NCBI GenBank assembly: GCA_963663165.1
Contig: OY760175.1
Coordinates: 3,872,001 to 3,936,000, forward strand
Source: an uncultured Desulfospira sp.
GTDB lineage: Bacteria; Desulfobacterota; Desulfobacteria; Desulfobacterales; Desulfobacteraceae
Length of the DNA: 64,000 nt
Reading direction: 5' to 3'
Shown here: positions 6,432 to 26,096 of the stretch, piece by piece
Position numbering within the stretch: the first letter of the stretch is position 1
Layout: every line of letters begins with the position of its first letter
Translations under genes and position numbers: made by a program
The notes under the pieces: model-generated
What the model was told of the DNA's origin: nothing
Databases searched by the model: none
What the model saw: only the letters and a program-made list of their open reading frames with translations

Positions 6432-7516
6432 GATGCCACCTCCCCTTGTTTCTTGTTTCCTGTTTCTTGTATCTTGTCCAAGGTGGTGATGATGTCCCTG
6501 ATGTCGATGTTGACCGGGCAGGCCGATACGCACCGTCCGCACCCCACGCACATGATGCCCTTTTCATATTTATCGCTGAAATATTTGAGCTTGTGCATGA
6601 ACCGGTTCCTGAAGCGCTGGGCCCCTTTTTCCCGGGGGTTATGGCCCGAGGCATGGGCTGAGTAAAGATCGCTCATGCAGGTGTCCCACAACCGCACCCT
6701 TATCCCCTTGTCTCTTTTCACCTCGTCCTGGATGTCAAAGCACCAGCAGGTGGGGCAGGAAAAGGTACAGGTGCCGCAGTTGATACAGGCAAAGGCTAAG
6801 GCATCCCAGTCCGTGTCATTGTAAAGGGACAGGGTGTCGGCCTTTAAGATATTGTCAAAAGCAGGCCCTTCGGGAATAAGCTTTTCGGCCGCTTCCTTGA
6901 GCTGGGCCATCTGCTGTTCAATGGCTTGGTCCCCTTCTTCAAACCCGGCTGCCTTTGAAAATGCCTCGCCCTTAGGGGTTAAGACCTTGCCGATAAACCC
7001 GTCTCCAACTTCCGCCAGGAGGATGTCCAGGCTTGATTCGTCAAAGGGGCCGGTGCCGCAGGCCAGAGAAAAATTGGTGGCATCCGGCTGATTTTCAGCA
7101 AGCCCGATCAGGGTTAAGGCCTCAATGCGCCGGATAAAGTAGGGGTCTTTGTACTCGCTGGTATCAAAGTTGAGTTTAAGCAGGTCAAAGGCCCTGGCAT
7201 CATAGGGCCGTATCCCCACAACTGCCAGGGGGGCATTGTCCGGCTCAATGGCGGTCAGGCTCAGGGACCTGGGGGCATCGACGGTTTCCTTTTTGACCTG
7301 GACCGGATAGGAGAATAAGGGCTCAACTGGGGGAAAAACCAGGGATTTGGGGGACAGACTTGTTTTTTTGTATGACAGATCCGGGGTTTCATTCGCTTGA
7401 AGACGCCGGAATTCGAAAGCCTCGCCTGTCCGGACAGGTCCTGCCAGAGCATAACTTTGCCTTGCCTTTGCCATGGCAGCGGCCAGATCCTGTTTTGAAA
7501 ATCTGATATATTTCAT
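6428..7516 (-). CDS. 4Fe-4S dicluster protein, FlxB/AsrA-like
   Basis: CINCGTCTFSCPTCWCFD, RFRNRFMHK, CVGCGRCVSACP. Confidence 0.88.
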   Translation of the reverse strand: MKYIRFSKQDLAAAMAKARQSYALAGPVRTGEAFEFRRLQANETPDLSYKKTSLSPKSLVFPPVEPLFSYPVQVKKETVDAPRSLSLTAIEPDNAPLAVVGIRPYDARAFDLLKLNFDTSEYKDPYFIRRIEALTLIGLAENQPDATNFSLACGTGPFDESSLDILLAEVGDGFIGKVLTPKGEAFSKAAGFEEGDQAIEQQMAQLKEAAEKLIPEGPAFDNILKADTLSLYNDTDWDALAFACINCGTCTFSCPTCWCFDIQDEVKRDKGIRVRLWDTCMSDLYSAHASGHNPREKGAQRFRNRFMHKLKYFSDKYEKGIMCVGCGRCVSACPVNIDIRDIITTLDKIQETGNKKQGEVAS

Positions 7517-7586
7517 GGAGGTTCCTCTTTGAGAGCTGTTAGCTGTTAGCTGTTAGCCGTTAGCTTTTAACGGCGTTCAGACGCAA

Positions 7587-8549
7587 TCACCGGATAAATT
7601 CGTTGGGATCCTTTAAGCTGAACTGGTCCAGGGCCGGCCGGCTGTCGGGATTCATTCCCGTTTCCCAGCCATAGGCCTGTTTACAGTCATAAATGGTCTT
7701 TCGGGTAAAGGCCCGCATTTTAATATCCATGGGACAGGCGGCCTCACACGCCCCGCAGTCCGTACAGCGGCCCGCGTCGTGAAAGGCACGGACCAGGTGA
7801 AAGGTCATCACGTCGGTGGGGTCACAGGTCTTGCCCACCCATTGGGGCGCTGACTCGTCCACAAAACAGGTGGGACAGTAGCACAGGGGGCAGGCGCTGC
7901 GGCAGGCATAGCACCGGATACACGAAGAGACCATATCGGCAAAAAAGGCCTTTCTTTTTTCCGTGTCCATGGCCGTAATGCCGGTCACGTCTTTGAACCG
8001 GTCCTCTCCCATGTCAAGCTCATCCACTTTTTCCCCGACAAGCTCATCAAACATCACCGGATTCCGGCTGATACAGGTTTTACAGTTGTCCTGGAGCAGA
8101 TCGGCCCTGGCCAGGCGTTTTTCGCCGGTGGCAAGGGTAAGCACCAATTCCTCTCCTTGTTCTGTCATGGAAAGGATGTCCCCGCCGGCCTGTTTAAAAA
8201 GCCTGGTTTTATCCACCATTCCCGTACAGGGAAGGCCAATGATATGAATCTGTTCCCGGCGGTACCGGTTTTCCTGGATCTGAGTGACCATGTTACGGCT
8301 GTCACATCCCTTGGCAAAGACGGCTATGCGGCCCGTTTCCCCCTTGAACCGGTCCGGGTTCAAATAGGCGGCAAGGTTCATCCGGCAATGGGCGTTAAAC
8401 ATCAGTTTCTTTGCCTGTTCAGGGGTTCTGGCCATAAAGGGCTGGGTCATCCAGGGCAGGCTGCCCCGGCAGTAGCCGATAACGGCATCCACCTCTCCTT
8501 TTTCCAACAGGCCGGCGGCCATACTTTGAATGTCCTGGTTGGTTGTCAT
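7587..8549 (-). CDS. 4Fe-4S protein, FlxC/FrhB-FdhB-like
   Basis: KGCDSR, IIGLPC.G, CIRCYACRSACPLCYCPTC, AGRCTDCGACEAACP. Confidence 0.85.
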   Translation of the reverse strand: MTTNQDIQSMAAGLLEKGEVDAVIGYCRGSLPWMTQPFMARTPEQAKKLMFNAHCRMNLAAYLNPDRFKGETGRIAVFAKGCDSRNMVTQIQENRYRREQIHIIGLPCTGMVDKTRLFKQAGGDILSMTEQGEELVLTLATGEKRLARADLLQDNCKTCISRNPVMFDELVGEKVDELDMGEDRFKDVTGITAMDTEKRKAFFADMVSSCIRCYACRSACPLCYCPTCFVDESAPQWVGKTCDPTDVMTFHLVRAFHDAGRCTDCGACEAACPMDIKMRAFTRKTIYDCKQAYGWETGMNPDSRPALDQFSLKDPNEFIR

Positions 8550-8980
8550 ATGGCCACCTCCGGCAGTTTTTTAATCAGATGGGTGGCAGGCCCTAAGGCG
8601 GCAACCTCAGCAATGACCTGCCGGGCCACTTCGGAAAACTTGACCCCTTCGGCCGAGGAGATCCAGGAGAACTGGAGACGGCCCGGTTCCAGGCCCGTAT
8701 ACTCTAACAGCTCTTTTAAGAGATGAAATTTTCTGCGGGCATAATAATTGCCCTCAATATAATGACAGTCTCCGGGATGGCACCCGGAAATCCAGACCCC
8801 GTCGGCCCCGTTCCGGATAGCATGAAGGATCATCTTGGCCGACACCCTGCCCGAGCAGGGAACCCGGACAATCCGCATGTTGGGCGGATATTGAAACCGG
8901 CTCACCCCGGCCAGATCGGCAGCACCGTATGAACACCAGTTGCACAGAAACGTTACAATTTTCGGTTCGAATTCAGTCAT
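8546..8980 (-). CDS. mvhD: hydrogenase iron-sulfur subunit MvhD/FlxD-like
   Basis: FLCNWCSYGAADLAG, RVPCSGRV, GCHPGDCHY.EGN, WISSAEG. Confidence 0.92.
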   Translation of the reverse strand: MTEFEPKIVTFLCNWCSYGAADLAGVSRFQYPPNMRIVRVPCSGRVSAKMILHAIRNGADGVWISGCHPGDCHYIEGNYYARRKFHLLKELLEYTGLEPGRLQFSWISSAEGVKFSEVARQVIAEVAALGPATHLIKKLPEVAI

Positions 8981-8992
8981 TTTAATTCCTTA

Positions 8993-9081
8993 TGGGGTAT
9001 GGGATTTGGGATATGGGACTTGGGGCCGTTATACACTTTCTGTTTCTCAAACCCCAAGTCCCAAATCTCAAGTCCCAAGTC
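8993..9081. repeat. 7-bp-periodic tandem arrays forming an inverted pair
   Basis: (TGGGAYW)n followed by (CCCAAGT)n between hdrA and mvhD; similar array at 37481-37541. Confidence 0.7.
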
Positions 9082-9087
9082 TAATAT

Positions 9088-12000
9088 CTAACAGGCAAAA
9101 TCCACCATAGCCATAATCTGGGACTCCTCAAACCCGGCAAGCCCGGCGGCACCGGAGCGGCAGGAAGACACGCACAGGCCGCATCCCTTGCAAAGCACCG
9201 GATTGACGGCGGCCTTGCCGGCAAACCGTCCCTCTTCGATAAAGTAAGGGGCATTGTAGGGACAGACCGCCACGCAGACCCCGCAGGAACTGCACAGGTT
9301 GACATCCACCGATGCGGTGTTGCCAAGGGTCTTGATTTCGGTTTTGGCAAACAGCCGGCACACACCAGCAGCGGCGGCCTGGGCCTGGGCAATGGATTCG
9401 TCAATGGGCTTGGGATAATGGGCAAGGCCGGCCAGGAATACCCCGTCCACGGCAAAGTTGGACGGTGCCAGCTTAACATGGGCTTCGGCAAAGAACCCGT
9501 CACTGTCCATGGGCACCTTGAACATTTTGGCCAGTTCCTCGTCCCTTGTGGAAACCACGGCCGATGCCAGGATCAGAAGATCGGTTTCAATCTCTATGGG
9601 CTGTCCCAGGACATGGTCTGTGACCTGAACGGCTAAGGTGTTCCCTTTATCTGAAACCACCGGCTTATCCGATACATTGTACCGAATAAAGATCACCCCA
9701 AGCTCCCGGGCCTTCTGGTATAGCAGCTCTTTTTCCCCGTAGGTCCGGATATCCCGGTACAGGATATATACGTCCATGTCCGGGGTTTTCTCCTTGAGAT
9801 GGATGGCCGAGGAAATGGAATGGGAACAGCAGACCCTGGAGCAGTATGGCCGGTCCGGTTCTCTTGACCCCACACACTGGATAAAGACCGCCGTCTCAGC
9901 CTTTTCAACCAGATCGGTCTTGTCCATGATCTGCCGGTCAAGCTCCAGGCTGGTCACCACCCGGCTGTCCTGGCCGTAAAGGTACTCGGCAGGTTTGTAC
10001 TCCTCACCGCCCACGGCAATAATGGCGGCCCCGTGACGGATCTTGGCCGGTGCAGGCCCGTCAATGGTGGTATCAAAGTTGCCCACAAAGCCTTGAACTT
10101 CATCAAGGACACTGGACAGGTGAACCGTGATCCCGGAATGGTCCGTCACCTTCTGACACAGGTCGGCCAGTTCTTTTTGAACATCCACACCCGTGGCGGT
10201 CTGATATATATTGAGGGCGTTGCCGCCCAGGCGGTCTGATTTTTCCACCAGGTCCACTTTATACCCCTGGTCGGCCAGGGACAGGGCCGAGGCCATGCCG
10301 GTGATGCCGCCGCCCACTACCAAAAGGCCCTTGTCAATGGAGAGGCTCTCCTCTTTCAGGGGCTTAAACAGCGCCACCTTGGCCACGGCCATGGCCACAG
10401 AGTCCATGGCCTTCTGGGTGGCTTTTCCCGGGGTGTCCTTGTGGACCCAGGAGTTATGGTTTCGAATATTGACCATCTCAAACAGGTACTTGTTGATGCC
10501 GGCGGCGGCCAGGGTTTCCTGGAACAGCGGGTCATGGGTCCGGGGACTGCACGCTGCCACAATCACCCGGTTCAATCCCTTTTCACGAATGAGTGCTGCA
10601 ATCTTGTCCTGGGTATCCTGGGAACAGGAGTAAAGGTTGTTGTCGGCAAACTCCACAAAGGGAAGGGTGGCCGCAAAATCCCGCACTGCCGGGACATCCA
10701 CCACAGACCCGATGTTAATGCCGCAGTGACAGACAAATACACCGATCCGGGGCACATCCGCAGATACATCCCGTTCTTCGGGCGGGACTATGGTCTTGAC
10801 CAGGGTCCCCCGGCTTTCGGCAATAGCGGATCCGGCAGACAGGGCAGCGGCACCGGCTTCAATGACCGACTGGGGGATATCCTTGGGTCCCTGGAAAGCG
10901 CCGCACACATAAATGCCGTCCCTGGATGTGGCCGTGGGGGTAAAACTCAATGTTTTACAGAACCCCTGTTCGGTCAGGTCAATGCCGATTTTCCCGGCCA
11001 GGGCACGGGTTTCTTCATGGATCTCCATGCCTACGGAGAGGACCACCAGGTCGAACTGTTCCTGGTCCAGGGTCTGGTTTTGCTCGTCAAAATAGGTAAT
11101 GGTCTGGTTGGGCTGGCCCGGGTTCTGGTGAACCGAATGGACCCGGCACCGGACAAACTTGATGCCGTGCTTTTCTTTTGCCTCGTTATAGCAGGCTTCA
11201 AACCCTTTGCCGTGGGTTCTCATGTCCATGTAAAAAATGGTACAGTCCAGGGACGGATCATGTTCCTTGGCAATAATGGCCTGCTTGATGGCATACATAC
11301 AGCAAACTGAAGAACAGTGGCGGTTATCACATTTGTTCATGTCCCTTGAGCCCACGCACTGGAGCCAGGCAATGGCCTTGGGCTCGGCATGGTCGGACAG
11401 TCTTATCACATGCCCCATATGGGGGCCTGAAGCCGATAAAAGCCGTTCAAATTCCAGGGAGGTGACCACGTCCGGCGTGGTGTTCCAGCCGTAGACCTGA
11501 GAATTCCCGGGATGATAGGGCTTGAACCCCGGGGCCAGGATAACGGCACCCGCGTTCAGGGTAAAGGTCTTGTCCCGGTCCTGGTAGTTGACGGCCCGGG
11601 CCGGACAGACATTTTCGCAGATACCGCACCGTTCCATGTTCAGCTGGATACACTGGGCGGGATCAATACAGAACTTTAAGGGAACCGCCTGGGCATAGGG
11701 AACATAAATGGCCTTTCGTTTGGCCAGCCCCTCATTGTACATATCGATCACTGTTTTGGGGCATTTTTCCGCGCAGAACCCGCAGGCCACACATTTGTCC
11801 GGGTCCACGTACCGGGCTTTCTGGAAAATCTCAACTTGAAAATTTCCCTTTTCACCTTTGATATCCTTGATATCGGCCAGGGTGACCAGCTCAATGTTGA
11901 TGTGCCGTCCTACTTCAACCAGCTTGGGGGACATGATACACATGGAACAGTCATTGGTCGGAAAGGTCTTGTCCAGTTGGGCCATGACCCCGCCAATGGC

Positions 12001-12117
12001 AGGGCTTTTCTCCACCATGTACACATAATATCCGGAATCGGCCAGATCCAGGGCCGCCTGAATGGCTGCGATGCCGCCTCCGGCTATCAGTACCGAGCCC
12101 AAGGGTTTGTCAGTCAT
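9088..12117 (-). CDS. hdrA: heterodisulfide reductase subunit A-like flavoprotein (large, two FAD modules)
   Basis: GGGIAA, AQLDKTFPTNDCSMC, QCVGSRD..CSSVCCMYA, GPKDIPQSV, VFVCHCG.NI, AACSPRTH, second GGGITG and QCVGSRE..CSRVCC, C-terminal ferredoxin motifs. Confidence 0.93.
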   Translation of the reverse strand: MTDKPLGSVLIAGGGIAAIQAALDLADSGYYVYMVEKSPAIGGVMAQLDKTFPTNDCSMCIMSPKLVEVGRHINIELVTLADIKDIKGEKGNFQVEIFQKARYVDPDKCVACGFCAEKCPKTVIDMYNEGLAKRKAIYVPYAQAVPLKFCIDPAQCIQLNMERCGICENVCPARAVNYQDRDKTFTLNAGAVILAPGFKPYHPGNSQVYGWNTTPDVVTSLEFERLLSASGPHMGHVIRLSDHAEPKAIAWLQCVGSRDMNKCDNRHCSSVCCMYAIKQAIIAKEHDPSLDCTIFYMDMRTHGKGFEACYNEAKEKHGIKFVRCRVHSVHQNPGQPNQTITYFDEQNQTLDQEQFDLVVLSVGMEIHEETRALAGKIGIDLTEQGFCKTLSFTPTATSRDGIYVCGAFQGPKDIPQSVIEAGAAALSAGSAIAESRGTLVKTIVPPEERDVSADVPRIGVFVCHCGINIGSVVDVPAVRDFAATLPFVEFADNNLYSCSQDTQDKIAALIREKGLNRVIVAACSPRTHDPLFQETLAAAGINKYLFEMVNIRNHNSWVHKDTPGKATQKAMDSVAMAVAKVALFKPLKEESLSIDKGLLVVGGGITGMASALSLADQGYKVDLVEKSDRLGGNALNIYQTATGVDVQKELADLCQKVTDHSGITVHLSSVLDEVQGFVGNFDTTIDGPAPAKIRHGAAIIAVGGEEYKPAEYLYGQDSRVVTSLELDRQIMDKTDLVEKAETAVFIQCVGSREPDRPYCSRVCCSHSISSAIHLKEKTPDMDVYILYRDIRTYGEKELLYQKARELGVIFIRYNVSDKPVVSDKGNTLAVQVTDHVLGQPIEIETDLLILASAVVSTRDEELAKMFKVPMDSDGFFAEAHVKLAPSNFAVDGVFLAGLAHYPKPIDESIAQAQAAAAGVCRLFAKTEIKTLGNTASVDVNLCSSCGVCVAVCPYNAPYFIEEGRFAGKAAVNPVLCKGCGLCVSSCRSGAAGLAGFEESQIMAMVDFAC

Positions 12118-12852
12118 GGGATACTCCTTTGATAATTGGTGAGTTGGGGGGAATTAAGGAAGACAGGGGCAGATAGAGGGCAGCACCCATTGCCCAGGTG
12201 ATACCGGCACTGAAACCGTCGCCCGGGAGCAATGGTTCCAACTGGTCCCTGATGCCGATAGCGTTACAAACATTTTTCAGGGCATTTTGCATAAGCCCGT
12301 TTCCTCTTAAATTTACCGCATGAAACAGCAACCACATGTTACTTTATGATAAGGGGAAACCGGCTGGTTTCTAATGGCTGTCGGCAGGCGATTTCCCCGT
12401 TATATCTTGCACCAGCCGGTCACGGGCGGTGCGTGCTAAGCTGCCTCAGTGTCTGTTGGGAAAATCAGCCATAAGCGCCTTTTTCTAAAAGCTTTTGTTA
12501 TGTTGCGGCCCTGAAAATAAGCCGTTTAAACTTTAAAAAATTATAAGAAATCAATAGGTTTGGCAAATTGATAATTCTTATGCCCTCTTATTTGCGACAT
12601 CGAAATATTCAATTTGTTTGATTTGTGACGGAGGGGTGGACGCATTTAATATCAAATGCGTTGTTTAACCCGTGTGGCAGGGGCAAATTAAAGCAGTAAA
12701 AGAAGAATTGATTTCAGCATTCTTTGAATAACATTTTTAATAGCATCATGGGAAAGCCGGCCAATAATTTGGGCATCCCAACTGCTTTTCAAGGATGAAT
12801 GTACCGGTGTCCCATCTCATCAGGTTGGGGTGTGGAAAGCATGAATTATTTT

Positions 12853-13707
12853 TCAGTTGGCTGATTTTATATCTTTAATCAGTGTTTTTATCTCAGAGGA
12901 GATCACATTCTGTTCTTTTATCATTTTTGCGAGGTTATATCGGTGGTCATCTTTGAGTTCATATTTTGATTGAAGTCTTAAAATCAATCGTTTGCCGTCA
13001 ATAATGCGGCTAAGACGCCAATATTGATCAAGGTTGTTGTTGCCATCGCAAAAGGCTAATAATCGCGTAGATACACTTTCGAAGTCGCATTCAACATGGC
13101 GTTTATCCAGATGTTCAATGCATTTGGCTTTTATTTGTGCCGGATTGTTCTCTCCGGAAACAAAGTGTGGGACCAACGCTTTTTCACCGGCCATATGCAA
13201 GCAAATATTGGTGGCTGTCACAGGGACAAGATTTTGAGATTGTTGTAAAAGCTGATCTGAAAGCAAATCGTTATCTATACCATCCGGAGAATATTTCCCG
13301 TAATCGGTAAGGAGGGCAAAAATAACTTTTGGATTTAAGAGGTAGTTTTCAATTTCCCATCGGCCAAGGGGTCTGATGTAATCCCCAAAAGGCCTGCTCC
13401 TCTGATAAATTCGATCATCATTTTCCCAAAACAAATCCCACGCATTTTCACGCATCAAGGCATCTCGATCAACGATTCCAAATGAGGGGATCCCCATGGA
13501 ACGATCTTTATCCACAAATCCCACCACTGTTGCACATCCCCCGGACCCGCCATTTTTACTGGATAAAAATTCAATGAATTCACCTTCGTCAAAAAACCAG
13601 CGCTGGAAAATTGCCAGATCAGTTTTAGATTCAAGATAAATCAGTTTGCGTCCGGAATACTTGCCGTCAACCGTATCAGATTTATTTAATGACTTGAATG
13701 TCGCCAT
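12853..13707 (-). CDS. TOPRIM (OLD/DUF4435, AriB-like) putative nuclease
   Basis: IYLESKTD (conserved Glu), GGC..V, GIVDRD (DxD), WEIENYLL, IDGK; directly follows an ABC ATPase. Confidence 0.72.
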   Translation of the reverse strand: MATFKSLNKSDTVDGKYSGRKLIYLESKTDLAIFQRWFFDEGEFIEFLSSKNGGSGGCATVVGFVDKDRSMGIPSFGIVDRDALMRENAWDLFWENDDRIYQRSRPFGDYIRPLGRWEIENYLLNPKVIFALLTDYGKYSPDGIDNDLLSDQLLQQSQNLVPVTATNICLHMAGEKALVPHFVSGENNPAQIKAKCIEHLDKRHVECDFESVSTRLLAFCDGNNNLDQYWRLSRIIDGKRLILRLQSKYELKDDHRYNLAKMIKEQNVISSEIKTLIKDIKSAN

Positions 13708-13722
13708 GAAAAATTTCCGATC

Positions 13723-14871
13723 TTATAAATTTTCTTCAATTATGTGTCCGCCTTTTCTCAATCCGGCTTCTTTTGTTTCAAACTCAAAGCCTTTAAGAAT
13801 TTCCCTTGAATGAGTCGTCGCAATAACATGTATTCCAGGCGTTTCAACCACAATTTGTTTTAGAATGTTCAAAATCCGATGCTGCCATTTGGGATGAAGA
13901 TGAACATCCACTTCATCAATCACAATCCAGGTATTCCGGGTCATATGTGCCCCGATCCGAAGCATCATCTGGGCCAGGCTTTTTTCTCCACTGCTCAGCC
14001 GGTCCAGCCTGTGCCTGGACCCTTTATTTGAAATCACGGCCTGTGGCGGATCCTTTTCAACCTCCTCAAGACGCTTATGGGTCCCTTTAAATACCCACTG
14101 GTTGACGTCTTCTATGGCCCTCTGGAAACGATCTTCGTCAATCCACTTGAGCCAGATCAGAAGATTATCAAGGGAATGGTTCCATTCTGCCCTTGAGAGA
14201 AACGGCTTAACCGGACGGTATCTCCAATCTTCCGGTGCTACAATTGCCCTGTCATAGTCTTCAATTTTAGGGATATCCCTGTATGCAGAAAAGTAGAGCA
14301 AAGTCGGTTCGGCAACCCCGCTGTCTCCAAATCCGTCAGGAGGAACGGACATCTGGTTTTGAATGGACCCCAGAAGGTCCTGAATAAAGGTATCACTGGC
14401 TCCGATTTTTTCCATTCGCCCGGAGAAATGGCGCCTGTAGCCGAAGCGATTCCAGGACCCTGCACCGGCAGATTTTAATTCAGAGTCTGTCCAGGCCCGG
14501 ATTGAAGCGGTGTCTTTGGGGCCTGCAATCAGGGACAGAACGGCACTTTGCTGTTCCTGGTTCTGATAGAACCTTACCAAAATATCAAGCTGAGCCCGGG
14601 AGGGGTCTTTTCCCAACATCTCAACCCGGTCAAGGTCTTCATGCCCGAAGGATGTCGGATTCTCCTTTTCAAGCATCCCCATCAGGGTCACCATTACATC
14701 CAGTAATGTCGTCTTTCCCTGCCCGTTTTCGGAAATAAGGAGAAACATATTGCAGGGATCTCCATTTCCATCTGTAAAATCCAGCTCAAACCTATCCCTG
14801 AAAGGGCCGATATTTTCCACCCACATGCGGATGGGCTCAAATCCCTGAATGCTAAAATCACCTGCAGGCAT
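13723..14871 (-). CDS. ABC-type ATPase (AAA_15/AAA_21, AriA-like)
   Basis: Walker A SENGQGKT, signature LSSGEK, Walker B/D-loop IVIDEVDVHLHPKWQ, H-loop ATTHS; no transmembrane segments apparent. Confidence 0.88.
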   Translation of the reverse strand: MPAGDFSIQGFEPIRMWVENIGPFRDRFELDFTDGNGDPCNMFLLISENGQGKTTLLDVMVTLMGMLEKENPTSFGHEDLDRVEMLGKDPSRAQLDILVRFYQNQEQQSAVLSLIAGPKDTASIRAWTDSELKSAGAGSWNRFGYRRHFSGRMEKIGASDTFIQDLLGSIQNQMSVPPDGFGDSGVAEPTLLYFSAYRDIPKIEDYDRAIVAPEDWRYRPVKPFLSRAEWNHSLDNLLIWLKWIDEDRFQRAIEDVNQWVFKGTHKRLEEVEKDPPQAVISNKGSRHRLDRLSSGEKSLAQMMLRIGAHMTRNTWIVIDEVDVHLHPKWQHRILNILKQIVVETPGIHVIATTHSREILKGFEFETKEAGLRKGGHIIEENL

Positions 14872-14873
14872 CT

Positions 14874-16364
14874 TTATTTCCTTTTTAAAGTTCTGACCGC
14901 CTCTTCAATATGGCTTTGTTTTACATGATAGCCATGAACCCTGACAGGTTTTTGGCCTGATAATTTGACAATCATATCTCCATCTCCGGTCAAACCTTCA
15001 GCTCCGGTTTCATCCAGAATAATTTTAGACTCAGAGGCTTTTTGGACGGTTAAGGCAATTCTTGATGGGATATTTGAACGCAACAACCCGGTAAAGGTTT
15101 TGGCATCCGGGCGCTGTGTGGCTAAAACCATATGAATTCCTGAAGATCGCGCTTTCTGGGCCAGAAAAACCAATTGGGTTTCCGTATCCGGACTTCGAAG
15201 TACCAAATCTGCCAATTCATCAACGAAAACAATAATTCTTGGCAAGCTTTGAGCCCCTGAAGCATGATACTCATCTATATTTCTGACTTTTTGGGCGGCA
15301 AACAGCTTTTCACGTTTTTCCATTTCCATGCAAAGCTCCCCCAACGTTTTGGTCACATCTTCGGGTTCTGAAATTATGGGCTGGTAGAGAAAATTTTCCA
15401 GGTCATTATAATCGTTAAATTCCACCCGCTTGGCATCAATAAAACAAAACCGCAGTGACTGAGGGGTGTTTGTTGTCAGCAAAGAGAGAATAAGCGCATG
15501 AATGCATATACTTTTACCACTGCCCGTAGTTCCACCGATCAAAAGATGGGGGGTCTTTGCCAGATCAAAAATAAAAGGATCTCCCATAATATCCACACCT
15601 GGACAGACCGGCAAGTGCCCCTTTCCTACATCCGGAGTCAAACCTGAAAAATCGATCTCAATTTTTTTCCAGGAAGTTTTTTTACGGGGAATATCAATTC
15701 CGATCAGTCTTGGCTCATTTGTTCTGCTAAGAACCAGAGACCCGGTATCTTTTCCCAAGGAAAACGCCAATTTATCAAGATTTTTTTCAAGCCGTTCAAG
15801 GTCCTGAAGGTTCTCCAGATACACAAGATAACGGGACAGCCTTACCCCTTCTATCTCATTTTGGATTTTTCCGGTAACACCGATCTCAGGCAAGACAGAT
15901 GAAAGGTCAGCGGTATCATCCGGTTCCACCGATGTCACCGGCCTGTCCGGTCCGTCGGAAAATAAATCATAAGCCAGAAAAGAATGAAAATCATGCCCAT
16001 CCTTCCAGGATGTGCGGATTTCATGAAGCCCCCTTCGAACGTGGCGCTGCATATATCTCCGGAAAAGCTCCGGATCAGCAAACAGGTCTTCTTCATAATA
16101 GGCACTTAGAACAGCACAGAAGACATCGGTATAATCATCCTCCTGCCGCTCCCCGGTCAATTGTTCAAAACTGTATTCACTGCCCCCTTCTGACCGGTCT
16201 TCAATTTTCTCCCATCCCTGTTCCGGATATTCGGGGATTTTAAGGGAAAGGGCCAGGGCCAGCCTCAATGATACCCATTTGGGAAGGCCTTTAACCCCTA
16301 ACCCTTTGGAGATGATCTGGTCGATGATTTTTTCATCTGAATGGCCGGTATATATTTTTGCCAT
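14874..16364 (-). CDS. DndE-like N-terminal domain fused to an FtsK/SpoIIIE DNA translocase motor
   Basis: N-terminus RLALALSL..GSEY.FEQLTGE..HVRRGL resembles DndE; C-terminus DLAKTPHLLIGGTTGSGKS, IDAKRVEF, IIVFVDELADL, KARSSGIHMVLATQRP, IILDETGAEGLTGDGDM is an FtsK motor. Confidence 0.85.
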   Translation of the reverse strand: MAKIYTGHSDEKIIDQIISKGLGVKGLPKWVSLRLALALSLKIPEYPEQGWEKIEDRSEGGSEYSFEQLTGERQEDDYTDVFCAVLSAYYEEDLFADPELFRRYMQRHVRRGLHEIRTSWKDGHDFHSFLAYDLFSDGPDRPVTSVEPDDTADLSSVLPEIGVTGKIQNEIEGVRLSRYLVYLENLQDLERLEKNLDKLAFSLGKDTGSLVLSRTNEPRLIGIDIPRKKTSWKKIEIDFSGLTPDVGKGHLPVCPGVDIMGDPFIFDLAKTPHLLIGGTTGSGKSICIHALILSLLTTNTPQSLRFCFIDAKRVEFNDYNDLENFLYQPIISEPEDVTKTLGELCMEMEKREKLFAAQKVRNIDEYHASGAQSLPRIIVFVDELADLVLRSPDTETQLVFLAQKARSSGIHMVLATQRPDAKTFTGLLRSNIPSRIALTVQKASESKIILDETGAEGLTGDGDMIVKLSGQKPVRVHGYHVKQSHIEEAVRTLKRK

Positions 16365-16374
16365 GAAAATTCCT

Positions 16375-18392
16375 TTAGCTGTCCGGGTACATTTGCTTCA
16401 GTCTGGGTTCAGTGGACTCTCCGTCCCAATTCTCCAGTTGGTATTCTTTGTATATGTGTGGGCAGAGCAGCCTGTATTTTTCCTCATCCAGTTCAGAGTC
16501 CGTGGGCAAAAGGATGACCTGCTTTCCCACGCTTGGGTAATAATTTTTCAGCAAGCTTCTTTGATTTACCGCATCCAGCCTTCCTAAAGGAGTATCTATG
16601 ACAACCGGAACCTCCTTTCTTGAAACTGTTTTTAAGGCCCATAATAGGGCCGTAGCAACCAGTTGTTTATTGCCCGAAGAAAGGTTGGTCCGTCCAATCT
16701 CATCCCCGGAATCATCCAGATAGGTTAATTCAAAGGTGTCCGATACCGATATCTTTTTGACCTGGGGGAGATTTGAGATCAATATCTTTGTGTACTTATC
16801 CAAAGTCTCCTCTACATCCCCCCTTTTTAATATTTTCAGATCCTGTTTATACTGGTTGAAAAATTTGCGAAGACCTTTTGCCAGATCAACCTTTTTCCTG
16901 GTCCTTTTGCTCAGTTCAACCTGTTTCTCCTGGTCCCGGATCTCTTTTTTTAATTGCTGGATATGTCTTTGTCTGATTTCTTTCTCAGTCTGGGATTTTT
17001 GAATTTCCTTTTTTATTCCTCCCCGCTCTTCGATTTGCCTTTTAGTTCCTCTGAAAGAAAATTAATTCGTTCCCGCTCTTCATCGGTCAGCCCTGCTGCC
17101 TCGGAAATATCGAAATCAATGCCTGCTATTTCCCGATTAAAGTCATGAATCTGTGCCAGGGTTCGTTTGATCTCCTCCCTGGCCCTGTTTAAGCCCCTAT
17201 ACTGAATAAATTGTTCATGCAATTGTTTGGCCGTTTTGAGGTCCAGTGATACCACGCCTGAATCCATATCCGGTATCCTTGCATCGATCAGGCCAATAAG
17301 ACGTTTTTTCAAGAATCGTTTCTGGCCGGGTTCCAGCTCAGGATTTGGATAGGGCGGCTCATCCAGCAGTCCCGGTACCAGGCTCTTTTTCAGGCTTTCC
17401 AATATTTCGGCCGCTTCACCCAGTTTGCTGCCGGCTGCTTTTTCAATATATTTTTCAGCTTTTTCTACAAGGCCGGGATTGGCCAGCAACGGGGATTCTT
17501 TGCGGATCAGATCCGCAAACAGGGCCTCCCTTTTTTCTTTTTCCGCGACGGCTATCTCACGGGAAGTATTCAAACGCCCAATGTCCTGACGATTCCGGAG
17601 ATATTCCAGTTTTTTCAGTTCATTTTCAATCTCATTGACCTCATGGTCCAGATCCATTTTCTGGTCTTCCCAATCCCGTTGTTTTTCATTTTCCTCTGCA
17701 ATGGCCAATTCATCTTTCTTTAACTGGTCCTGGGTTTCATATAGAATTCGTCTTTTTTCTTCCTCCATAGCATCCTGCTGCCACTCTTTTACCACTGTTT
17801 TAAGCTCTGAACGAAGGTAGTCAATGGGGGCAATATCCAAAAGCCTTTCCATATCCGTTTTAAAGGATTCTTGATCTGTGGATTCCACAAGACGTTCAAT
17901 CTGTTCACTGTCAAAAAAGAAAAACGGAATATAAGCCGGTGGCAGGCGTTGTTCAATAAATTCCCTGGCGTCTTTATCCTGAAGCCGGTTTCCATTATGG
18001 ATAATTTCCAATTCCCCGAAAAAATTTTTGCCATTCAGATCCCATGACCGTTCAGCCAAAACCACTGAACCGGCTTCGGTCCATTCAATGGACACACTGC
18101 ACCGGGTATCCCCCCTCTGAACAGCCTTCCGGTTCACGATTCCCAGCCAGGTTCTACCGTCTCCAATGACAAACCGTTTTTGACCCAGAGGCCGGCCGGT
18201 AATATCCACGGCCAAAGATTCCGTGGTACCGGCAAACAGCAGTTTGAGACTGCGGATAAAGCTGGTTTTCCCGTATCCGTTTCTCCCTGAAATTAAAACG
18301 ATATTTGCCTGTTCACTTCCTCCTGTCAGGTCAAATTCAACCGGGCCAAAATAGGAAAATAGATTGTTGAGGATGATTTTATTGAATTTCAT
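16375..18392 (-). pseudogene. dndD: DNA sulfur modification ATPase DndD (SMC-like), split by a single frameshift between 17013 and 17061
   Basis: 5' ORF 17013-18392: NLFSYFG..FDL, SGRNGYGKTS, FFFFDSEQI, coiled coil; the -1 frame is open from about 17061 to 16375 and carries LSSGNKQL, VVIDTPLGRLD, QVILLPTDSE; joined product about 672 aa. Confidence 0.85.
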
Positions 18393-19723
18393 GCGTCAGC
18401 TGTCTCTTGCTGGACCACGGATCGTTCCAGCATTTTTTTTATTTCCCGGGTCAATTGCTTTTTGGCCCCGTAGGTATTCAACGTGGGAAGCTGCTCTTTA
18501 ACCATGTCTAAAAGACTTCGAATCAATTCAGGCGGTAATTCCTCGTAACTTGGCAGCAGTTCATCCAAGAGCCGGTCTTCCTCTGAAGTGCGAAAACTCT
18601 GTTTCATTTCAGATACCTCCCTGTTATATTGAGCGGCAATTTTCAGTGCTGAATCCTGAAAATCAATTTCTTTGGTCCATGTGTCATGTATATAAGCGAT
18701 TTCCATATCAGAAATCAATTGTCGTCCCATCTGCTGTTCTATTTCCAGCAAGTAGTTAAAGATTTCTTTACGGGTATCAAATGTGAAAGGCCCTATGCCT
18801 TTTGAACCGTCCCGTCTGAAAGGCATCCTCCTGCCAGGTTCTTCCCGGATCTGCTTGATCCAGTCCCTGAATTCATTAAGCGGCTTCATCCAGGCTTCCC
18901 CGGTTTGGATAAAACCCTGCATGGAAATATCTTTTTTTACAACCGTACATGTCCAGCAGCCAAACCGGCTTCCACCACAGGAAGGGGACAGCATGTCAAA
19001 AATCATATGACATTCATTCCCTGTAGCTTTGCTGTAGAGTGAGATCAGGTCGTTATGATTGCTTCCCCATGGCGATGGCCTGGTTTGTAAATATTCCCAT
19101 ACCTGATCCGTAGTCCACTCCGCGATCGGAGTTGAAACCAGTGCATTGGAGATTTCATGATGTGGATTTAGCCCCCGATAGCTTTTTTCCCGCCCATTCA
19201 TTCGATTCCGCCGCTCGGAACTCTCATCCATCCGGGTCCCCAAGAGAAGGATAACGCTTCCTTTTTCTCTTGTTATTCTTTCAATTACCTTACGGGTAGG
19301 CCGGATTTTAAGACTGCTGGTACACCAGCGAAACCATCTTGTGGGTGCCGGATACCCCTTTCCAATAAGTTTGGCCCAGAAGGTGGATTCAACTTCCGGT
19401 ACCACGACTTTTACCTGAATGGGCAGCAATCGTTTCTCAACATCCTTTTTAATACAATCAATGGTTTCATGTAAATAAGCTGCAATGTTGGGTGGTTCCA
19501 CACCAGTATCGGAATATATGATATAGACAGGCTTTAGCTTTGAAGGGTCCGTGTCTATCAACATGTGATACACCAATTCCAAAAGGAGTGTGGAATCTTT
19601 GCCCCCTGAAAAGGCAACAACCCATGGGCGCATGTCTTTTTTATATTCTTTTGACAGTTGCTGAATAGTATTTTGGGCAATCGACCCTATGCGGTCTATG
19701 GATATTAAATTTGAATTCATCAT
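18389..19723 (-). CDS. dndC: DNA phosphorothioation sulfurtransferase DndC (PAPS reductase family)
   Basis: PWVVAFSGGKDST, SDTGVE.P, IGKGYPAP..FRWCT..LKI.P, LGTR..ES..R, SCGGSRFGCWTCTVV. Confidence 0.93.
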   Translation of the reverse strand: MMNSNLISIDRIGSIAQNTIQQLSKEYKKDMRPWVVAFSGGKDSTLLLELVYHMLIDTDPSKLKPVYIIYSDTGVEPPNIAAYLHETIDCIKKDVEKRLLPIQVKVVVPEVESTFWAKLIGKGYPAPTRWFRWCTSSLKIRPTRKVIERITREKGSVILLLGTRMDESSERRNRMNGREKSYRGLNPHHEISNALVSTPIAEWTTDQVWEYLQTRPSPWGSNHNDLISLYSKATGNECHMIFDMLSPSCGGSRFGCWTCTVVKKDISMQGFIQTGEAWMKPLNEFRDWIKQIREEPGRRMPFRRDGSKGIGPFTFDTRKEIFNYLLEIEQQMGRQLISDMEIAYIHDTWTKEIDFQDSALKIAAQYNREVSEMKQSFRTSEEDRLLDELLPSYEELPPELIRSLLDMVKEQLPTLNTYGAKKQLTREIKKMLERSVVQQETADA

Positions 19724-20021
19724 AATTATGGTTAGGTGGTAATTGTTTTAAATTTTAAATGTATACACATTTTTCCAGGTCATGTCTGCATGTTTTCATT
19801 TAAAAAAGTTGTGTTTGGCAATTAAAGTTTTAGTTTTCTTGCTCGTTGGCGGCAGAAAAGAGGCGGAAAAATTAAAATGAAATAGATAAAAAGTGCCTTA
19901 AGGCCGGAACCACCTATTCTCGGTTTTCTACAGATTCAGAGGGTAACGTCAAAATGCTTTGTGACAGTTTTTCATGCCCGGATTGACAAGAAACAGGGTC
20001 TTGGCCTACAACTGTTCAATC

Positions 20022-21353
20022 ATGAATTCCGGACCAGACAATGTGGAGTACCAAACCCTGATGGAATGCCTGCCCGAAGGCGTTTTTGCCATCAATACCA
20101 AATGGCAGGTGGCTTTTTTTAACCGGGCTGCTGAAGACATTACCGGATATAAACGGCATGAAGTGCTGGGCCGGTACTGCCATGAGGTGTTTCAATCGGA
20201 TCTTTGCGAGCTGGGCTGTCCCTTTAAGGCGGTTCTTGAAACCGGCCGGGAGGCTGAACCCCAGGCGGTCCGGATTTTGTCCAGGGACAGGGTCCTGAAA
20301 ACCATTCTGGTGAATGCCGGGGCGTTGCGGGATGATTCAGGGGCCATGGCCGGTGCGGTCGGAACCTTCAGGACTTTGGGCAGGGAGGAGCAGTCGTCGA
20401 CCACACCAAGGGTGTCCCAGGCCACTTCCCGGATTATCGGGAAAAGCCCGGCCATCCGCCGGCTGTTCAGCATTCTCGGGGATGTCTGTGCCAGTCAGGC
20501 CAATGTGTTTCTCACCGGGGAGAGCGGGACCGGAAAGGAGTTGTTTGCCCGGACCATTCACCAGAACTCTGCCCGTGCCAAACATCCGTTTATGGCCGTT
20601 AACTGCTCTGCCCTGGCCGAGACCCTGCTGGAGTCGGAATTGTTCGGCCATGAAAGATTTGCCTTTACCGGTGCGGTTAAGGCCAAGGCCGGCCGGTTTG
20701 AACTGGTGAAACAGGGCACCCTGTTCCTGGATGAAATCGGGGACCTTAAACCCGGACTTCAGGTTAAACTGCTCCGGGTGCTGGAACAAAGGGAATTTGA
20801 ACGGGTGGGCGGCATCTGTCCTATCCCTCTTGAGGCCCGGATTATCTGCGCCACCAACCGGGATCTGTCCCGGGCACTGGCGGACGGCTCCTTTAGAAAG
20901 GACTTTTATTACCGGTTACAGACGGTTCCCCTGGTGATCCCGCCCCTTCGCCGGCGCAAAGAGGACATCCCCCTGCTGGTCGATTTTTTTATCCGGACCT
21001 TCAATGTTTCATTTAAAAAAAAGGTGAAAGGGGTGGCCCCGGAGGTAATGACATTTTTTGCCCAATACCACTGGCCCGGCAATGTAAGGGAGCTTGAACG
21101 GACCATTGAACATGCCTTTGTGTTTGTAAAGAGCGATGTGATTGGTCTGGAAAACCTGCCCTCCCGTGATATGTTCAGCCCGGAACCGGCCCCAAGGCCG
21201 GCAGCGGACAGCCGTAAAATCGAACTGACCATGGACGAAATTTCCAGTGCCCTTGAGCAGGCCGGCGGCAGAAAAGAAAAAGCGGCTGAACTTCTCGGCA
21301 TCAGCCGGACATCCCTGTGGCGGAAAATAAAGGCCTTTCCTCCTCTCGAGTAG
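20022..21353 (+). CDS. PAS-domain sigma-54-dependent transcriptional activator
   Basis: PAS, GESGTGKE, LLESELFGHE, FAFTGA, TLFLDEIG, WPGNVREL, C-terminal HTH; an alternative start lies at 19974. Confidence 0.92.
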   Translation: MNSGPDNVEYQTLMECLPEGVFAINTKWQVAFFNRAAEDITGYKRHEVLGRYCHEVFQSDLCELGCPFKAVLETGREAEPQAVRILSRDRVLKTILVNAGALRDDSGAMAGAVGTFRTLGREEQSSTTPRVSQATSRIIGKSPAIRRLFSILGDVCASQANVFLTGESGTGKELFARTIHQNSARAKHPFMAVNCSALAETLLESELFGHERFAFTGAVKAKAGRFELVKQGTLFLDEIGDLKPGLQVKLLRVLEQREFERVGGICPIPLEARIICATNRDLSRALADGSFRKDFYYRLQTVPLVIPPLRRRKEDIPLLVDFFIRTFNVSFKKKVKGVAPEVMTFFAQYHWPGNVRELERTIEHAFVFVKSDVIGLENLPSRDMFSPEPAPRPAADSRKIELTMDEISSALEQAGGRKEKAAELLGISRTSLWRKIKAFPPLE

Positions 21354-21553
21354 GCCCGTTCCAGCAAGAATGTTTCAAACGTTTCAAGCGTTTCAACACT
21401 TAAACACATTTCGATTGCTTATGTAAATTCAAATTGTTATAGTGAAACGCTCGCCTCGTCGGTTTAAATAATGTTTCAATTTAACCCGGGCCAGAGGGCC
21501 AGCTGACTCCCGGATCGTCTGCATTATCAGTAATTCAGACAAGATATGCCGGC

Positions 21554-21569
21554 TGGCCTGATTTTTGCT
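21554..21569 (+). promoter_or_regulatory. sigma-54 -24/-12 promoter
   Basis: TGGCCTGATTTTTGCT = GG-N10-GC, between two enhancer-binding-protein genes, with GTTTCA repeats about 75-185 bp upstream. Confidence 0.65.
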
Positions 21570-21661
21570 GTCCATGAATAAGGCCCGGAAGAGGAACACA
21601 TCAATCAAAGAGAGCTGACACATGATGCCGAACCGCCGCACCACAAAGGGGATCAACACCA

Positions 21662-23017
21662 ATGCCTGACAGACCGGGGATTAGAAAAACGGTCCGGGGG
21701 CTATCCTTTCTTCCCCGCATGGATTACCCGGACCTGTTTGACGGTCTGCCCCTTGGGGTTTTTGCCGTTGACCGGAACCAGCGGATCACGGCATTCAATA
21801 AACAGGCCCAGAAACTTACGGGGGTGACGCCCCAGGAGGCGGTCGGCGCCCCTTGCAGCAAAATCTTCCAGGGCGGTGACTGCCGTCATGAGTGTCCCTT
21901 CACAGACCTGTTTGACAACCACCTCCCCCCTTCAAGAAAAGAGATGACCCTTCAAAATACCCGGGGTGTCCCCCTCAGGGTCAGCATGAAAACCGCTGCA
22001 CTGACAGACAGTTTTGGACAGATCACCGGCGGGATTGCAAGCTTTGGCAGATCTTTGGGGCCGTTGAGCCGGACCATGCCGTTAAACGGGCCGGATACCT
22101 TTGAGGGAATGGTGGGCCGGAGCCCGGCCATGAAATCCATTTTTGAAAAACTGCCCGACATTGCCCAAAGCCCTGTCAGCGTTTTGATAACCGGCGAAAG
22201 CGGCACGGGAAAGGACATGGTGGCCAGGGCCATCCACAACCTGTCCGACAGAAAGGAAAACCCCTTTCAGGTGGTCAACTGTTCGGCCCTGTCCGAGACC
22301 CTGCTGGAGTCCGAACTGTTCGGCCACGAAAAAGGCGCCTTTACAGACGCGGCCTATGCCAAGCCCGGCCGGTTTGAATTAGCGGCCGGCGGCACCTTTT
22401 TCCTGGATGAAATCGGGGACATGAAACCCTCCCTTCAGGTCAAGTTTTTAAGGGTACTGGAACAAAAAGAGTTTGAACGGGTGGGATCGGACCGGACATT
22501 AAAAATGACCGCCCGGATCATTGCGGCCACCCACCACAATTTAGAGCATAAAGACAGCGGTTTCAGGCCGGATCTCTATTACCGGTTAAGGACCATCCCC
22601 CTTCATCTGCCGCCCTTAAGGGAACGCAAAGAAGACATCCCTCGGCTGGTAGACCATTTTATCACAGCCTTTAACCACCAGTATAACAAACAGGTAAGGC
22701 TGCTGGACCCGGCGGTCCAGTCCATATTTTTAGACTATGACTGGCCCGGCAACGTCCGGGAACTTTCCCGGGTCATGGAACACGCCTTTGTTTTTGTCAA
22801 AGGGCCCATTATTTTTCTTCGGTATCTGCCGGAAAACCCGGCCTTTACTCGGGGCAGGGGCCGGAAAAAATCAGGCGCCCGTCCCATATCTGAAAAAGAA
22901 AGGATCACCAGAGCATTGGAAAAAACCGGCCGGAAAAGAGCGGCTGCCGCGCAGCTCTTAGGCATAAGCCGGTCTACATTATGGCGTAAAATGAAACACT
23001 TCGGCCTGCAGGGCTAA
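21662..23017 (+). CDS. PAS-domain sigma-54-dependent transcriptional activator
   Basis: PAS, GESGTGKD, GAFTDA, FFLDEIG, WPGNVREL, HTH LGISRSTLWRKM. Confidence 0.92.
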   Translation: MPDRPGIRKTVRGLSFLPRMDYPDLFDGLPLGVFAVDRNQRITAFNKQAQKLTGVTPQEAVGAPCSKIFQGGDCRHECPFTDLFDNHLPPSRKEMTLQNTRGVPLRVSMKTAALTDSFGQITGGIASFGRSLGPLSRTMPLNGPDTFEGMVGRSPAMKSIFEKLPDIAQSPVSVLITGESGTGKDMVARAIHNLSDRKENPFQVVNCSALSETLLESELFGHEKGAFTDAAYAKPGRFELAAGGTFFLDEIGDMKPSLQVKFLRVLEQKEFERVGSDRTLKMTARIIAATHHNLEHKDSGFRPDLYYRLRTIPLHLPPLRERKEDIPRLVDHFITAFNHQYNKQVRLLDPAVQSIFLDYDWPGNVRELSRVMEHAFVFVKGPIIFLRYLPENPAFTRGRGRKKSGARPISEKERITRALEKTGRKRAAAAQLLGISRSTLWRKMKHFGLQG

Positions 23018-23074
23018 GCTATCCTGACAGGTGAACACCAATTTTGTTCAATACCATATTAAAGGAGATCATCC

Positions 23075-23572
23075 ATGAAAGCATCCATGCAACCTATTGA
23101 TGAATTGCTGGATAAATATCCGGCCAAGCCGGAGTACCTGATCGGGCTGCTTCAGGATATCCAGGCACAGCAGGGCTACATCTCATATGATGCCATGCGC
23201 CTGGCCAGCGAACACACCCGGGTCCCCTTAACCCGGGCCTATTCGGTGGCGACCTTTTACCAGTCTTTCAGGCTGGATCCCCCGGGCGAGCATGAAATCA
23301 AGGTCTGCCTGGGAACCGCCTGCCACCTTAAAGGCGGACAGCAGCTGGTGGAAGGGGTGGCCCGTAAACTTGGGGTCGAGCCCGGAGAGACCACCGGTGA
23401 CATGATGTTTACATTGAGTACGGTCAACTGTGTGGGGGCCTGCGCCATTGCACCGGTGGCCATTGTGGATGAGGAGTACCACCCCAAATCCACCATTCAG
23501 AAGGTTGAAAAAGAGATCAACAAAATCCTGGATCCTTCATCAGACAGTGAAAAAGGAGACCCCAATGAATAG
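23075..23572 (+). CDS. NuoE/HydC-like 2Fe-2S subunit
   Basis: LQDIQ..GYIS, VATFY..F, VCLGTACHLKGG, NCVGACAIAP. Confidence 0.92.
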   Translation: MKASMQPIDELLDKYPAKPEYLIGLLQDIQAQQGYISYDAMRLASEHTRVPLTRAYSVATFYQSFRLDPPGEHEIKVCLGTACHLKGGQQLVEGVARKLGVEPGETTGDMMFTLSTVNCVGACAIAPVAIVDEEYHPKSTIQKVEKEINKILDPSSDSEKGDPNE

Positions 23573-25466: not shown

Positions 25467-25477
25467 GGGAGGTTGTC

Positions 25478-26080: not shown

Positions 26081-26096
26081 ATCAAGGAGAGATATC

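Follow-up and report, generated by a model that had tools for sequence, protein, structure and literature searches.

The window (the whole stretch of 64,000 nucleotides that was analysed) carries a tightly packed run of five genes on its minus strand, in the order dndC, dndD, a fusion of dndE to ftsK, an AriA-like ABC ATPase gene and an AriB-like Toprim gene, with 2 bases between the fusion and the ABC ATPase gene and 15 bases between the latter and the Toprim gene. The first-pass annotation of this DNA described the fusion, which is also our central finding, and missed the conserved five-gene operon around it, which is the more interesting object. The features are as follows:

12736..19963, no strand assigned: variable island holding the operon, with a GC content of 0.447 in its genes, the flanks having 0.545 and 0.558
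18389..19723, minus strand: dndC, PAPS-reductase-family sulfurtransferase of 444 aa (TIGR03183, 334 bits against a cut-off of 290)
16375..18392, minus strand: dndD-type coiled-coil ABC ATPase without a CxC hook, seemingly split near 17033 (two frames match full-length homologues)
14874..16364, minus strand: dndE::ftsK fusion gene, an ORF of 496 aa
15987..16364, minus strand: DndE domain, residues 1-126, from Pfam, fold comparison and secondary structure
15915..15959, minus strand: acidic and proline-containing linker, residues ~136-150
14877..15914, minus strand: FtsK alpha (residues ~151-230) and RecA-like beta motor (~248-496), from fold comparison, conservation and residues mapped by hand; Walker A 278-285, Walker B 379-383, arginine finger R406, sensor Q417, pore residues R418, G426, R429 and K447
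13723..14871, minus strand: AriA/PtuA-like ABC ATPase of 382 aa, with Walker A, LSSGE signature, DE Walker B and H-loop
12853..13707, minus strand: AriB-like Toprim nuclease of 284 aa, with E26, D30, D80, D82, E118, E120 and K239

The DndE-FtsK fusion is genuine: at least 120 full-length homologues of 44-92% identity were recovered, which rules out a chance fusion or an artefact. Pfam DndE matches residues 28-119 with 34.7 bits against a cut-off of 25 (E 2.3e-8). A sequence profile of this domain found nothing meaningful among PDB sequences and a fold search was required, for which an AlphaFold model built from 120 homologues was used (mean pLDDT 91, falling below 50 in the low-confidence linker at residues 139-146). 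Among 48,161 chains searched, residues 1-126 of the model resembled DndE 7x4e (Z 12.4, 112/114 residues aligned, rmsd 3.3) and residues 1-117 resembled DndE 5wtu (Z 10.4). The predicted strands at 3-5 and 63-65, the helices and the long C-terminal helix at 98-119 match the tandem ribbon-helix-helix fold with C-terminal helix of DndE, and the DndE-like N-terminus proposed in the first-pass annotation therefore passed the check on fold similarity. The rest of the protein had been read as an FtsK alpha-like segment followed by a RecA-like motor, and every motif quoted for it was found: residues 146-496 align with the E. coli FtsK alpha/beta structure 2ius (Z 41.4, 345 aligned, rmsd 2.8), FtsK takes first place in Foldseek, and HerA and TdpAB structures reach only Z 15-20 against the motor. 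Pfam FtsK_SpoIIIE covers residues 248-419, while FtsK_alpha has no match on the window's fusion protein and is given for 26/120 fusion homologues (a hand count among the matches listed).

A membrane anchor is absent from the fusion, in which the highest 19-residue hydropathy is 1.17 and the N-terminus is DndE, and the gamma (PF09397) and 4TM (PF13491) domains occur in 0/120 fusion homologues among the matches listed. Since the tail beyond G478 measures just 11-25 aa in 120/120 of those listed, there is no room for gamma. The earlier statement that transmembrane helices and gamma are missing was thus borne out. The idea built on it, that DndE replaces the targeting module, stood in one respect, the loss of anchor and gamma; DndE, though, occupies the anchor and linker end, N-terminal to alpha, and not the end of gamma.

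By alignment, the fusion motor retains the catalytic and most of the DNA-gripping residues of FtsK. Walker A, R406, Q417, R418, G426 and R429 are invariant in 120/120 fusion homologues, and the K447 position holds K or R in all of them (among the matches listed). The set R406/R418/G426/R429/K447 was mapped by hand, from an alignment, onto P. aeruginosa FtsK R620, R632, G640, K643 and R661, residues named in the available part of PMC7321959. Deviations are also evident. The FtsK pore lysine K657 is replaced by S, A, G or T in 119/120 fusion homologues, the lysine one position earlier (K442) being kept in 119/120 (both among the matches listed), and FtsK S634 has become an invariant D in the fusion family. 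Walker B reads DE in the window's fusion and its clade and in 20/29 divergent family members, and EE in 108/120 homologues (among the matches listed). In 3/48 long relatives scanned (P0179, P0187, P0191) a decayed motor without catalytic motifs stands behind DndE. Because of the EE Walker B in 108 of the 120 listed and these three decayed motors, ATP-driven translocation may be weak or dispensable. Elsewhere, at L189:8779-10278, lies another DndE fusion whose FtsK motor lacks the catalytic motifs.

The first-pass annotation called the motor FtsK-type rather than HerA-type, and BLAST and trees against cellular FtsK and DndE-HerA agree on this with the fold comparisons. Among the long-protein matches listed, classical FtsK/SpoIIIE scored best, 119/120 carrying FtsK_alpha and the other being EccC-like, at 36-45% identity between the motor and cellular FtsK. 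In an unrooted tree, from which 27/97 rows had been dropped (10 long-branch or outgroup, 17 near-duplicates), 41 DndE-FtsK motors split from 29 cellular and plasmid FtsKs with an SH-aLRT of 100. A quick rooted tree that also took in HerA, EccC, DndH and decayed motors contained long-branch joins and its root is unsure; for this reason it does not give the direction of capture. The alpha domain and the ubiquity of FtsK nevertheless suggest that the motor was captured from the cellular FtsK family. In the rooted tree a single DndH fell, with weak grouping, among divergent family members, yet BLAST scored it higher against cellular FtsK (143 versus 132 bits). A scan for DndE in 401 genomes of the phylum found five, namely the window's fusion, one standalone protein and three DndE-HerA fusions (L262-L264). 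The latter, with DUF87/HerA_C, lack an alpha domain, form a separate branch and give a best BLAST hit to the window's fusion of E 0.026. As they are barely similar to DndE-FtsK, DndE is fused to two motor types, and on at least two occasions it has acquired a DNA motor, once of the HerA and once of the FtsK type. In the same three loci dndC, dndD and a DndB/DGQHR gene lie alongside. The window's own genome (G000) contains two other FtsK genes, of the cellular type, separated by about 100 kb (G000:C1:6157440 and 6257134).

DndE-motor fusions as such are not new. In DndEi the extra domain is a DUF87/HerA domain. DndEi and the clade-3 fusions share with the window's protein an N-terminal DndE, an ATPase of the HerA/FtsK superfamily, a neighbouring dndD and a length of about 500 aa. 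We rejected the identity of the fusion with DndEi on the motor type, since L262-L264 have a HerA/DUF87-type ATPase and no FtsK-alpha; DndEi of R. anatipestifer was compared by description only. Loss of helicase activity in that DndEi abolished DNA phosphorothioation (PT), according to the available part of a review (PMC6435447). The clade 3 of Rakesh, Aravind and Krishnan 2024, in the part of PMC10853773 available, includes DndE-fused HerA/FtsK domains (citing Krishnan 2020), and the same text confines FtsK-alpha to cellular FtsK, clade-2 DndH and Orc/Cdc6-linked systems. The description of a DndE-fused domain beside a DndD-related ABC fits the window's fusion, but the FtsK-alpha restriction does not. 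The alpha-bearing form is absent from the main-text sections of that paper, the supplement of which may list it; Toprim, DUF4435 and PARIS are likewise absent from its main text as Dnd-linked nucleases, and its supplement may bear on novelty here too. Our literature search returned no paper on the five-gene operon and PMC10853773 alone as joining DndE and FtsK; a supposed dndD and DUF4435 paper (PMC9255913) was, in the part available, an unrelated proteomics list. What the locus adds is another type of DndE-motor fusion, the second, with a motor of FtsK type and set in a conserved operon of PT and PARIS-like genes. Should the fusion family be listed in published supplements, its architecture would be known already, and the PARIS-like link and the subfamily pattern would be what is new. 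No longer form of canonical DndE was found among 266 candidates (a weak search).

The surroundings of the fusion were assessed in 72 stretches found in a species-level genome collection with a DNA pattern derived from the DndE domain, a single motif that returned loci partly akin to one another; an earlier locus scan had been swamped by chromosomal FtsK (2/80 family loci). All 72 carry a gene of the fusion family, mostly in Gamma- and Betaproteobacteria, Magnetococcales and Desulfobacterota. Where there was room for them, dndD was present in 71/71 loci, placed immediately ahead of the fusion as is usual for a DndE, the ABC ATPase in 70/71, the Toprim gene in 67/68 and dndC in 62/65, while the remaining 3/65 (L088, L117, L143) have motor and pair but no dndC. 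The suggested association with a PT machine is therefore upheld by conserved dndC and dndD partners. No further general neighbour was seen among the 72 loci, including dndA, dndB and PbeA, although a PT-associated putative methyltransferase cluster touches 10 of them. In the genome itself (one genome, 96.7% complete) DndB was not found, and neither TIGR04095 (PbeA) nor DptH matched above cut-off, the DptH result being weak as its control was silent too; away from the locus it has two genes that are strong class-V aminotransferase (IscS-like) matches. With DndABCDE the operon shares dndC, a DndD-type ABC ATPase and DndE, in that order, and intact DndC cysteines, but it has no dndA or dndB as conserved neighbours, both of which are dispensable in such clusters.

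DndC cysteines C134, C238, C249, C256 and C259 are invariant in 33/33 sequences. The final ~72 aa of DndC form a "small protein" domain (18389-18607, minus strand), fused in 46/63 loci and encoded by a separate ORF in 17/63. In the window it has an in-frame ATG of its own (M373, 18607) behind a GGAGG-like site, and a methionine with a Shine-Dalgarno-like site is present in 29/42 fused copies. Where separate, it is annotated as "DNA modification system-associated small protein"; one such copy weakly matches profiles of the DndC C-terminus, and the small protein may therefore have arisen as a DndC domain that split off. For dndD, we considered and rejected a pseudogene: contigs from 4/4 runs (3 samples, 2 studies) have one extra base near 17033, and the frameshift is most likely a one-base assembly slip, a check made on contigs only and including one run that is possibly the source of the window's DNA. 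An intact dndD homologue passes TIGR03185. The best PADLOC models for this ABC ATPase are those of PbeC, a likeness to CxC/PbeABCD, but a CxC zinc hook at the coiled-coil apex was found in 0/63 DndD-type proteins, and in place of an HKD-SF2 helicase-nuclease the operon has the motor and the PARIS-like pair.

For the ABC and Toprim genes of PARIS, the published rule asks for AAA_15 with at least 32 or AAA_21 with at least 27 bits and an adjacent DUF4435 with at least 27 bits (PMC9122126, available part). The window's ABC ATPase exceeds the AAA_15/AAA_21 thresholds (46.2 and 58.9 bits), among solved sequences it comes nearest to PtuA/retron ATPases and AriA, and K53, S293-S294-E296, D319-E320 and H354 are invariant in 48/48. 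On the window's Toprim protein Pfam gives no match, and DUF4435 is detected in 28/51 relatives at E <= 0.01, the window's copy excepted, with the PADLOC AriB model matching 45/51. Its sequence profile found nothing meaningful among PDB sequences, so that a fold search was required here as well. The model (pLDDT 92.5) came closest to AriB 8v46_D with Z 15.3, followed by OLD nucleases at 8.2 or less. E26, D30, D80, D82, E118, E120 and K239 are invariant in 51/51; by motif, E26, D30, D80, D82 and E118/E120 correspond to the metal-binding acidic residues E26, D30, D88, E90 and E122 of AriB (PMC11464382, available part). The AriA-contacting R28/R31 of AriB are not conserved, Toprim positions 28 and 31 (matched by motif position only) being variable. 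The pair thus seems to resemble PARIS as far as anatomy goes, in the order of an AAA_15/21 ABC ATPase and a Toprim protein, putatively of DUF4435 type, the predicted AriB fold and the acidic metal ligands, and falls short of full membership. It differs from PARIS in being fixed inside a dnd operon, as against the reported independence of PARIS from any RM system (PMC9122126, available part), in the length of the ATPase (382 versus 464 aa) and in the interface arginines. We regard it as likely to be an anti-phage suicide nuclease pair. A complex prediction for the fusion and the ABC ATPase scored 0.00, which speaks neither for nor against contact.

GC below that of the flanks, together with the same-genus genome G012, in which both flanks are kept and 3.3 kb of other DNA lies between them, indicates that the block is a horizontally acquired island. 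We take this site in G012 to hold a different, RelE/ParE-like pair. The DndE N-terminal domain was found in 0/150 other genomes of the host family. Integrase, relaxase and repeats are absent at the locus, and searches for repeats, promoters and terminators there gave chance level only. Short stretches at 12522-12734 of the window match high-depth contigs that diverge from the window in three runs, possibly marking a repeat end at the island edge; these stretches are single copy in G000. In the flanks (5586-12117 and 19974-28376) redox genes and two PAS sigma-54 activators are found, the former presumably heterodisulfide-reductase/hydrogenase-like and NADH-dehydrogenase-like.

A looser pattern gave 69 stretches, 62 of them new, and 16 of the 62 were chance matches. 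Among the others, 14 fusions have the complete pair, in 2 the ABC gene is broken or partial, and 2 are split. In 9 fusions (8 Helicobacter, 1 Mariprofundaceae) the pair is missing, and 8 of these have room for it (7 Helicobacter, 1 Mariprofundaceae), giving dndC-dndD-dndE::ftsK minus the ABC and Toprim genes. A further 16 have DndE without motor or pair, 15 from an Arcobacter/Sulfurimonas-type standalone clade and 1 at a contig end; in this sister clade of dndC-dndD-standalone dndE, 10 loci have dndC. Three loci (L202, L212, L176) have no motor and no dndC in view and keep one or both pair genes, although as close relatives they may represent one event. Three plasmids carry, without the pair, a dndC-small protein-dndD-dndE::ftsK arrangement whose DndE is more distant, and on a Mesorhizobium plasmid the whole module stands behind a complete dndA-C-D-E set. 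Since fusions without the pair and pair genes without the motor both occur, motor and nuclease pair can be separated, and dndC is a steadier companion of the motor than the pair is, three exceptions apart. This weakens the earlier suggestion that the motor delivers the downstream nuclease, which is moreover one half of a PARIS-like pair.

Several loci showed features of their own. A TusA-family sulfur carrier lies 3' of dndE::ftsK on two alphaproteobacterial plasmids (L161:13854-14090, L224:9260-9463). At L176:4492-6729 (minus strand), DndE is fused to an unannotated region of ~600 aa; this gene lies downstream of the one for the Toprim protein, and a DEAH/DpdJ-like helicase is close by. In Methylobacter luteus dndE::ftsK is interrupted by an inserted element (L120:7358-11176), presumably IS21-like. 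Lone dndC-like genes occur on plasmids without dndD/E (L159:8935-10278, L156:8866-10695), and similar PAPS-reductase matches are found on many Bacillota plasmids.

We suggest, tentatively and at somewhat less than an even chance, that the PT machine uses the motor as its scanning engine, a plausible idea already raised in the first-pass annotation, and that the PARIS-like pair serves as a separable abortive back-up. In a first layer, DndC, the DndD-type ABC ATPase and DndE::FtsK would form a DNA-modifying machine that produces the PT mark, a housekeeping cysteine desulfurase supplying the sulfur. The FtsK alpha/beta part, presumably a descendant of the cellular FtsK/SpoIIIE family that has lost anchor and gamma, would assemble into a soluble ring moving on double-stranded DNA. 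Target sites would be read, or used for loading, by the double ribbon-helix-helix domains of DndE, which would also link the ring to DndCD. The motor would play the role of the HerA-type domain in DndEi through an independent capture. In a second layer, the AriA-like ATPase would keep the AriB-like Toprim nuclease inactive until the detection of a phage protein, for instance a DNA mimic or one that inhibits the Dnd machine, whereupon the nuclease would be released onto its target and abortive infection would follow.

This scanning-engine reading draws on the fold and the conserved catalytic and DNA-contact residues, the classical FtsK/SpoIIIE matches of the motor and the tree split, the conservation of the operon, the separability of the layers, the precedent of DndEi, and a genome in which DndB was not found and IscS-like genes lie away from the locus. 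Several observations speak against it: a motor is dispensable for dndCDE generally, as the sister clade with standalone dndE demonstrates, 3/65 loci keep motor and pair without dndC, and the EE Walker B, the decayed motors and the K657/S634 substitutions question the activity of the ring. As to the second layer, the AriA-binding arginines of AriB are not conserved, and the related MAD3-MAD4 pair cuts DNA. A bolder version, in which the motor, domesticated from chromosome segregation, patrols DNA for the sulfur mark through its DndE reader and is guarded by, or directly switches on, the PARIS-type nuclease, an undescribed PT immune system, strikes us as rather unlikely. If motor and nuclease were coupled in this manner, DNA phosphorothioation would for the first time be tied to PARIS in hard-wired form, and the fusion would be a naturally occurring soluble FtsK with sequence-dependent loading.

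TdpABC works through a DNA mark, a HerA/FtsK-class motor and a nuclease. Counterparts of all three are predicted at our locus, but TdpABC has a single PT gene and no DndD/DndE, and TdpA is HerA-like (Z 15.9 to the fusion motor). Tdp PT needs tdpC only, according to the available part of PMC12914056. MADS shares the ABC and Toprim pair, and its PADLOC mad8 model matches the fusion motor; adenine (m6A) methylation and an eight-gene operon set it apart from the window's locus, which has neither. By analogy with TdpAB or the MADS modules, a single restriction machine could be envisaged, in which a DndE::FtsK ring translocates on PT-lacking DNA and hands it to, or activates, a DNA-cutting ABC and Toprim pair, which corresponds to the nuclease delivery suggested in the first-pass annotation. 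The pair directly follows the fusion in the window and is kept in nearly all loci with room, the genome has no DptH or PbeA match above cut-off (with the silent DptH control noted above), MAD3-MAD4 is reported to cleave DNA and not tRNA (PMC13662399, available part), and the PADLOC SspH model, like mad8, matches the motor. Yet the fusion occurs without the pair in 8 loci and 3 plasmids, pair genes persist without the motor in 3 loci, and the nuclease fold is nearer to the tRNase AriB than to the OLD DNases, and we consider a single machine distinctly unlikely.

It appears improbable that the FtsK part serves chiefly as sensor, decoy or scaffold, so that a guarded complex, once engaged by DNA mimics, phage replication or packaging DNA or inhibitors aimed at cellular FtsK, trips a PARIS-like effector, with translocation being secondary. 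Such a role would accommodate the EE Walker B of most listed homologues and the decayed motors kept behind DndE, and captured HerA/FtsK domains have been proposed to intercept invader DNA (PMC10853773, available part); against it stand the Walker A, arginine finger, sensor Q and pore residues invariant in all 120 listed and the canonical DE in the window's clade and in most divergent members. A selfish, addiction-type cassette of PT mark and toxin pair with no anti-phage role, or a motor that moves or segregates the island, is very improbable, the patchy spread, the low GC and the variable site with a different pair in G012 being set against the absence of integrase, relaxase and repeats and the origin of every component from families with shown defence roles.

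DndFGH is missing from many PT-modifying bacteria, and the purpose of their mark is described as open in the available part of PMC10853773. The five-gene block offers both a candidate effector, the PARIS-like pair, and a candidate scanning engine, the FtsK motor, which could be separated by point mutants. That DndE captured a motor at least twice suggests that translocation helps the search for PT targets. Relative to cellular FtsK/SpoIIIE, with which it shares the alpha/beta motor, Walker A/B, the arginine finger, the sensor Q and most pore residues, the window's fusion lacks membrane anchor, long linker and gamma, carries DndE at its N-terminus and falls in a separate clade; an FtsK motor in which a small, exchangeable DNA-reading domain replaces anchor and gamma would be of interest for motor biophysics. 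In a separate instance of an FtsK motor in another setting, a protein annotated as topoisomerase III on a Paenibacillus plasmid (L258:173-3781) has such a motor at its C-terminus.
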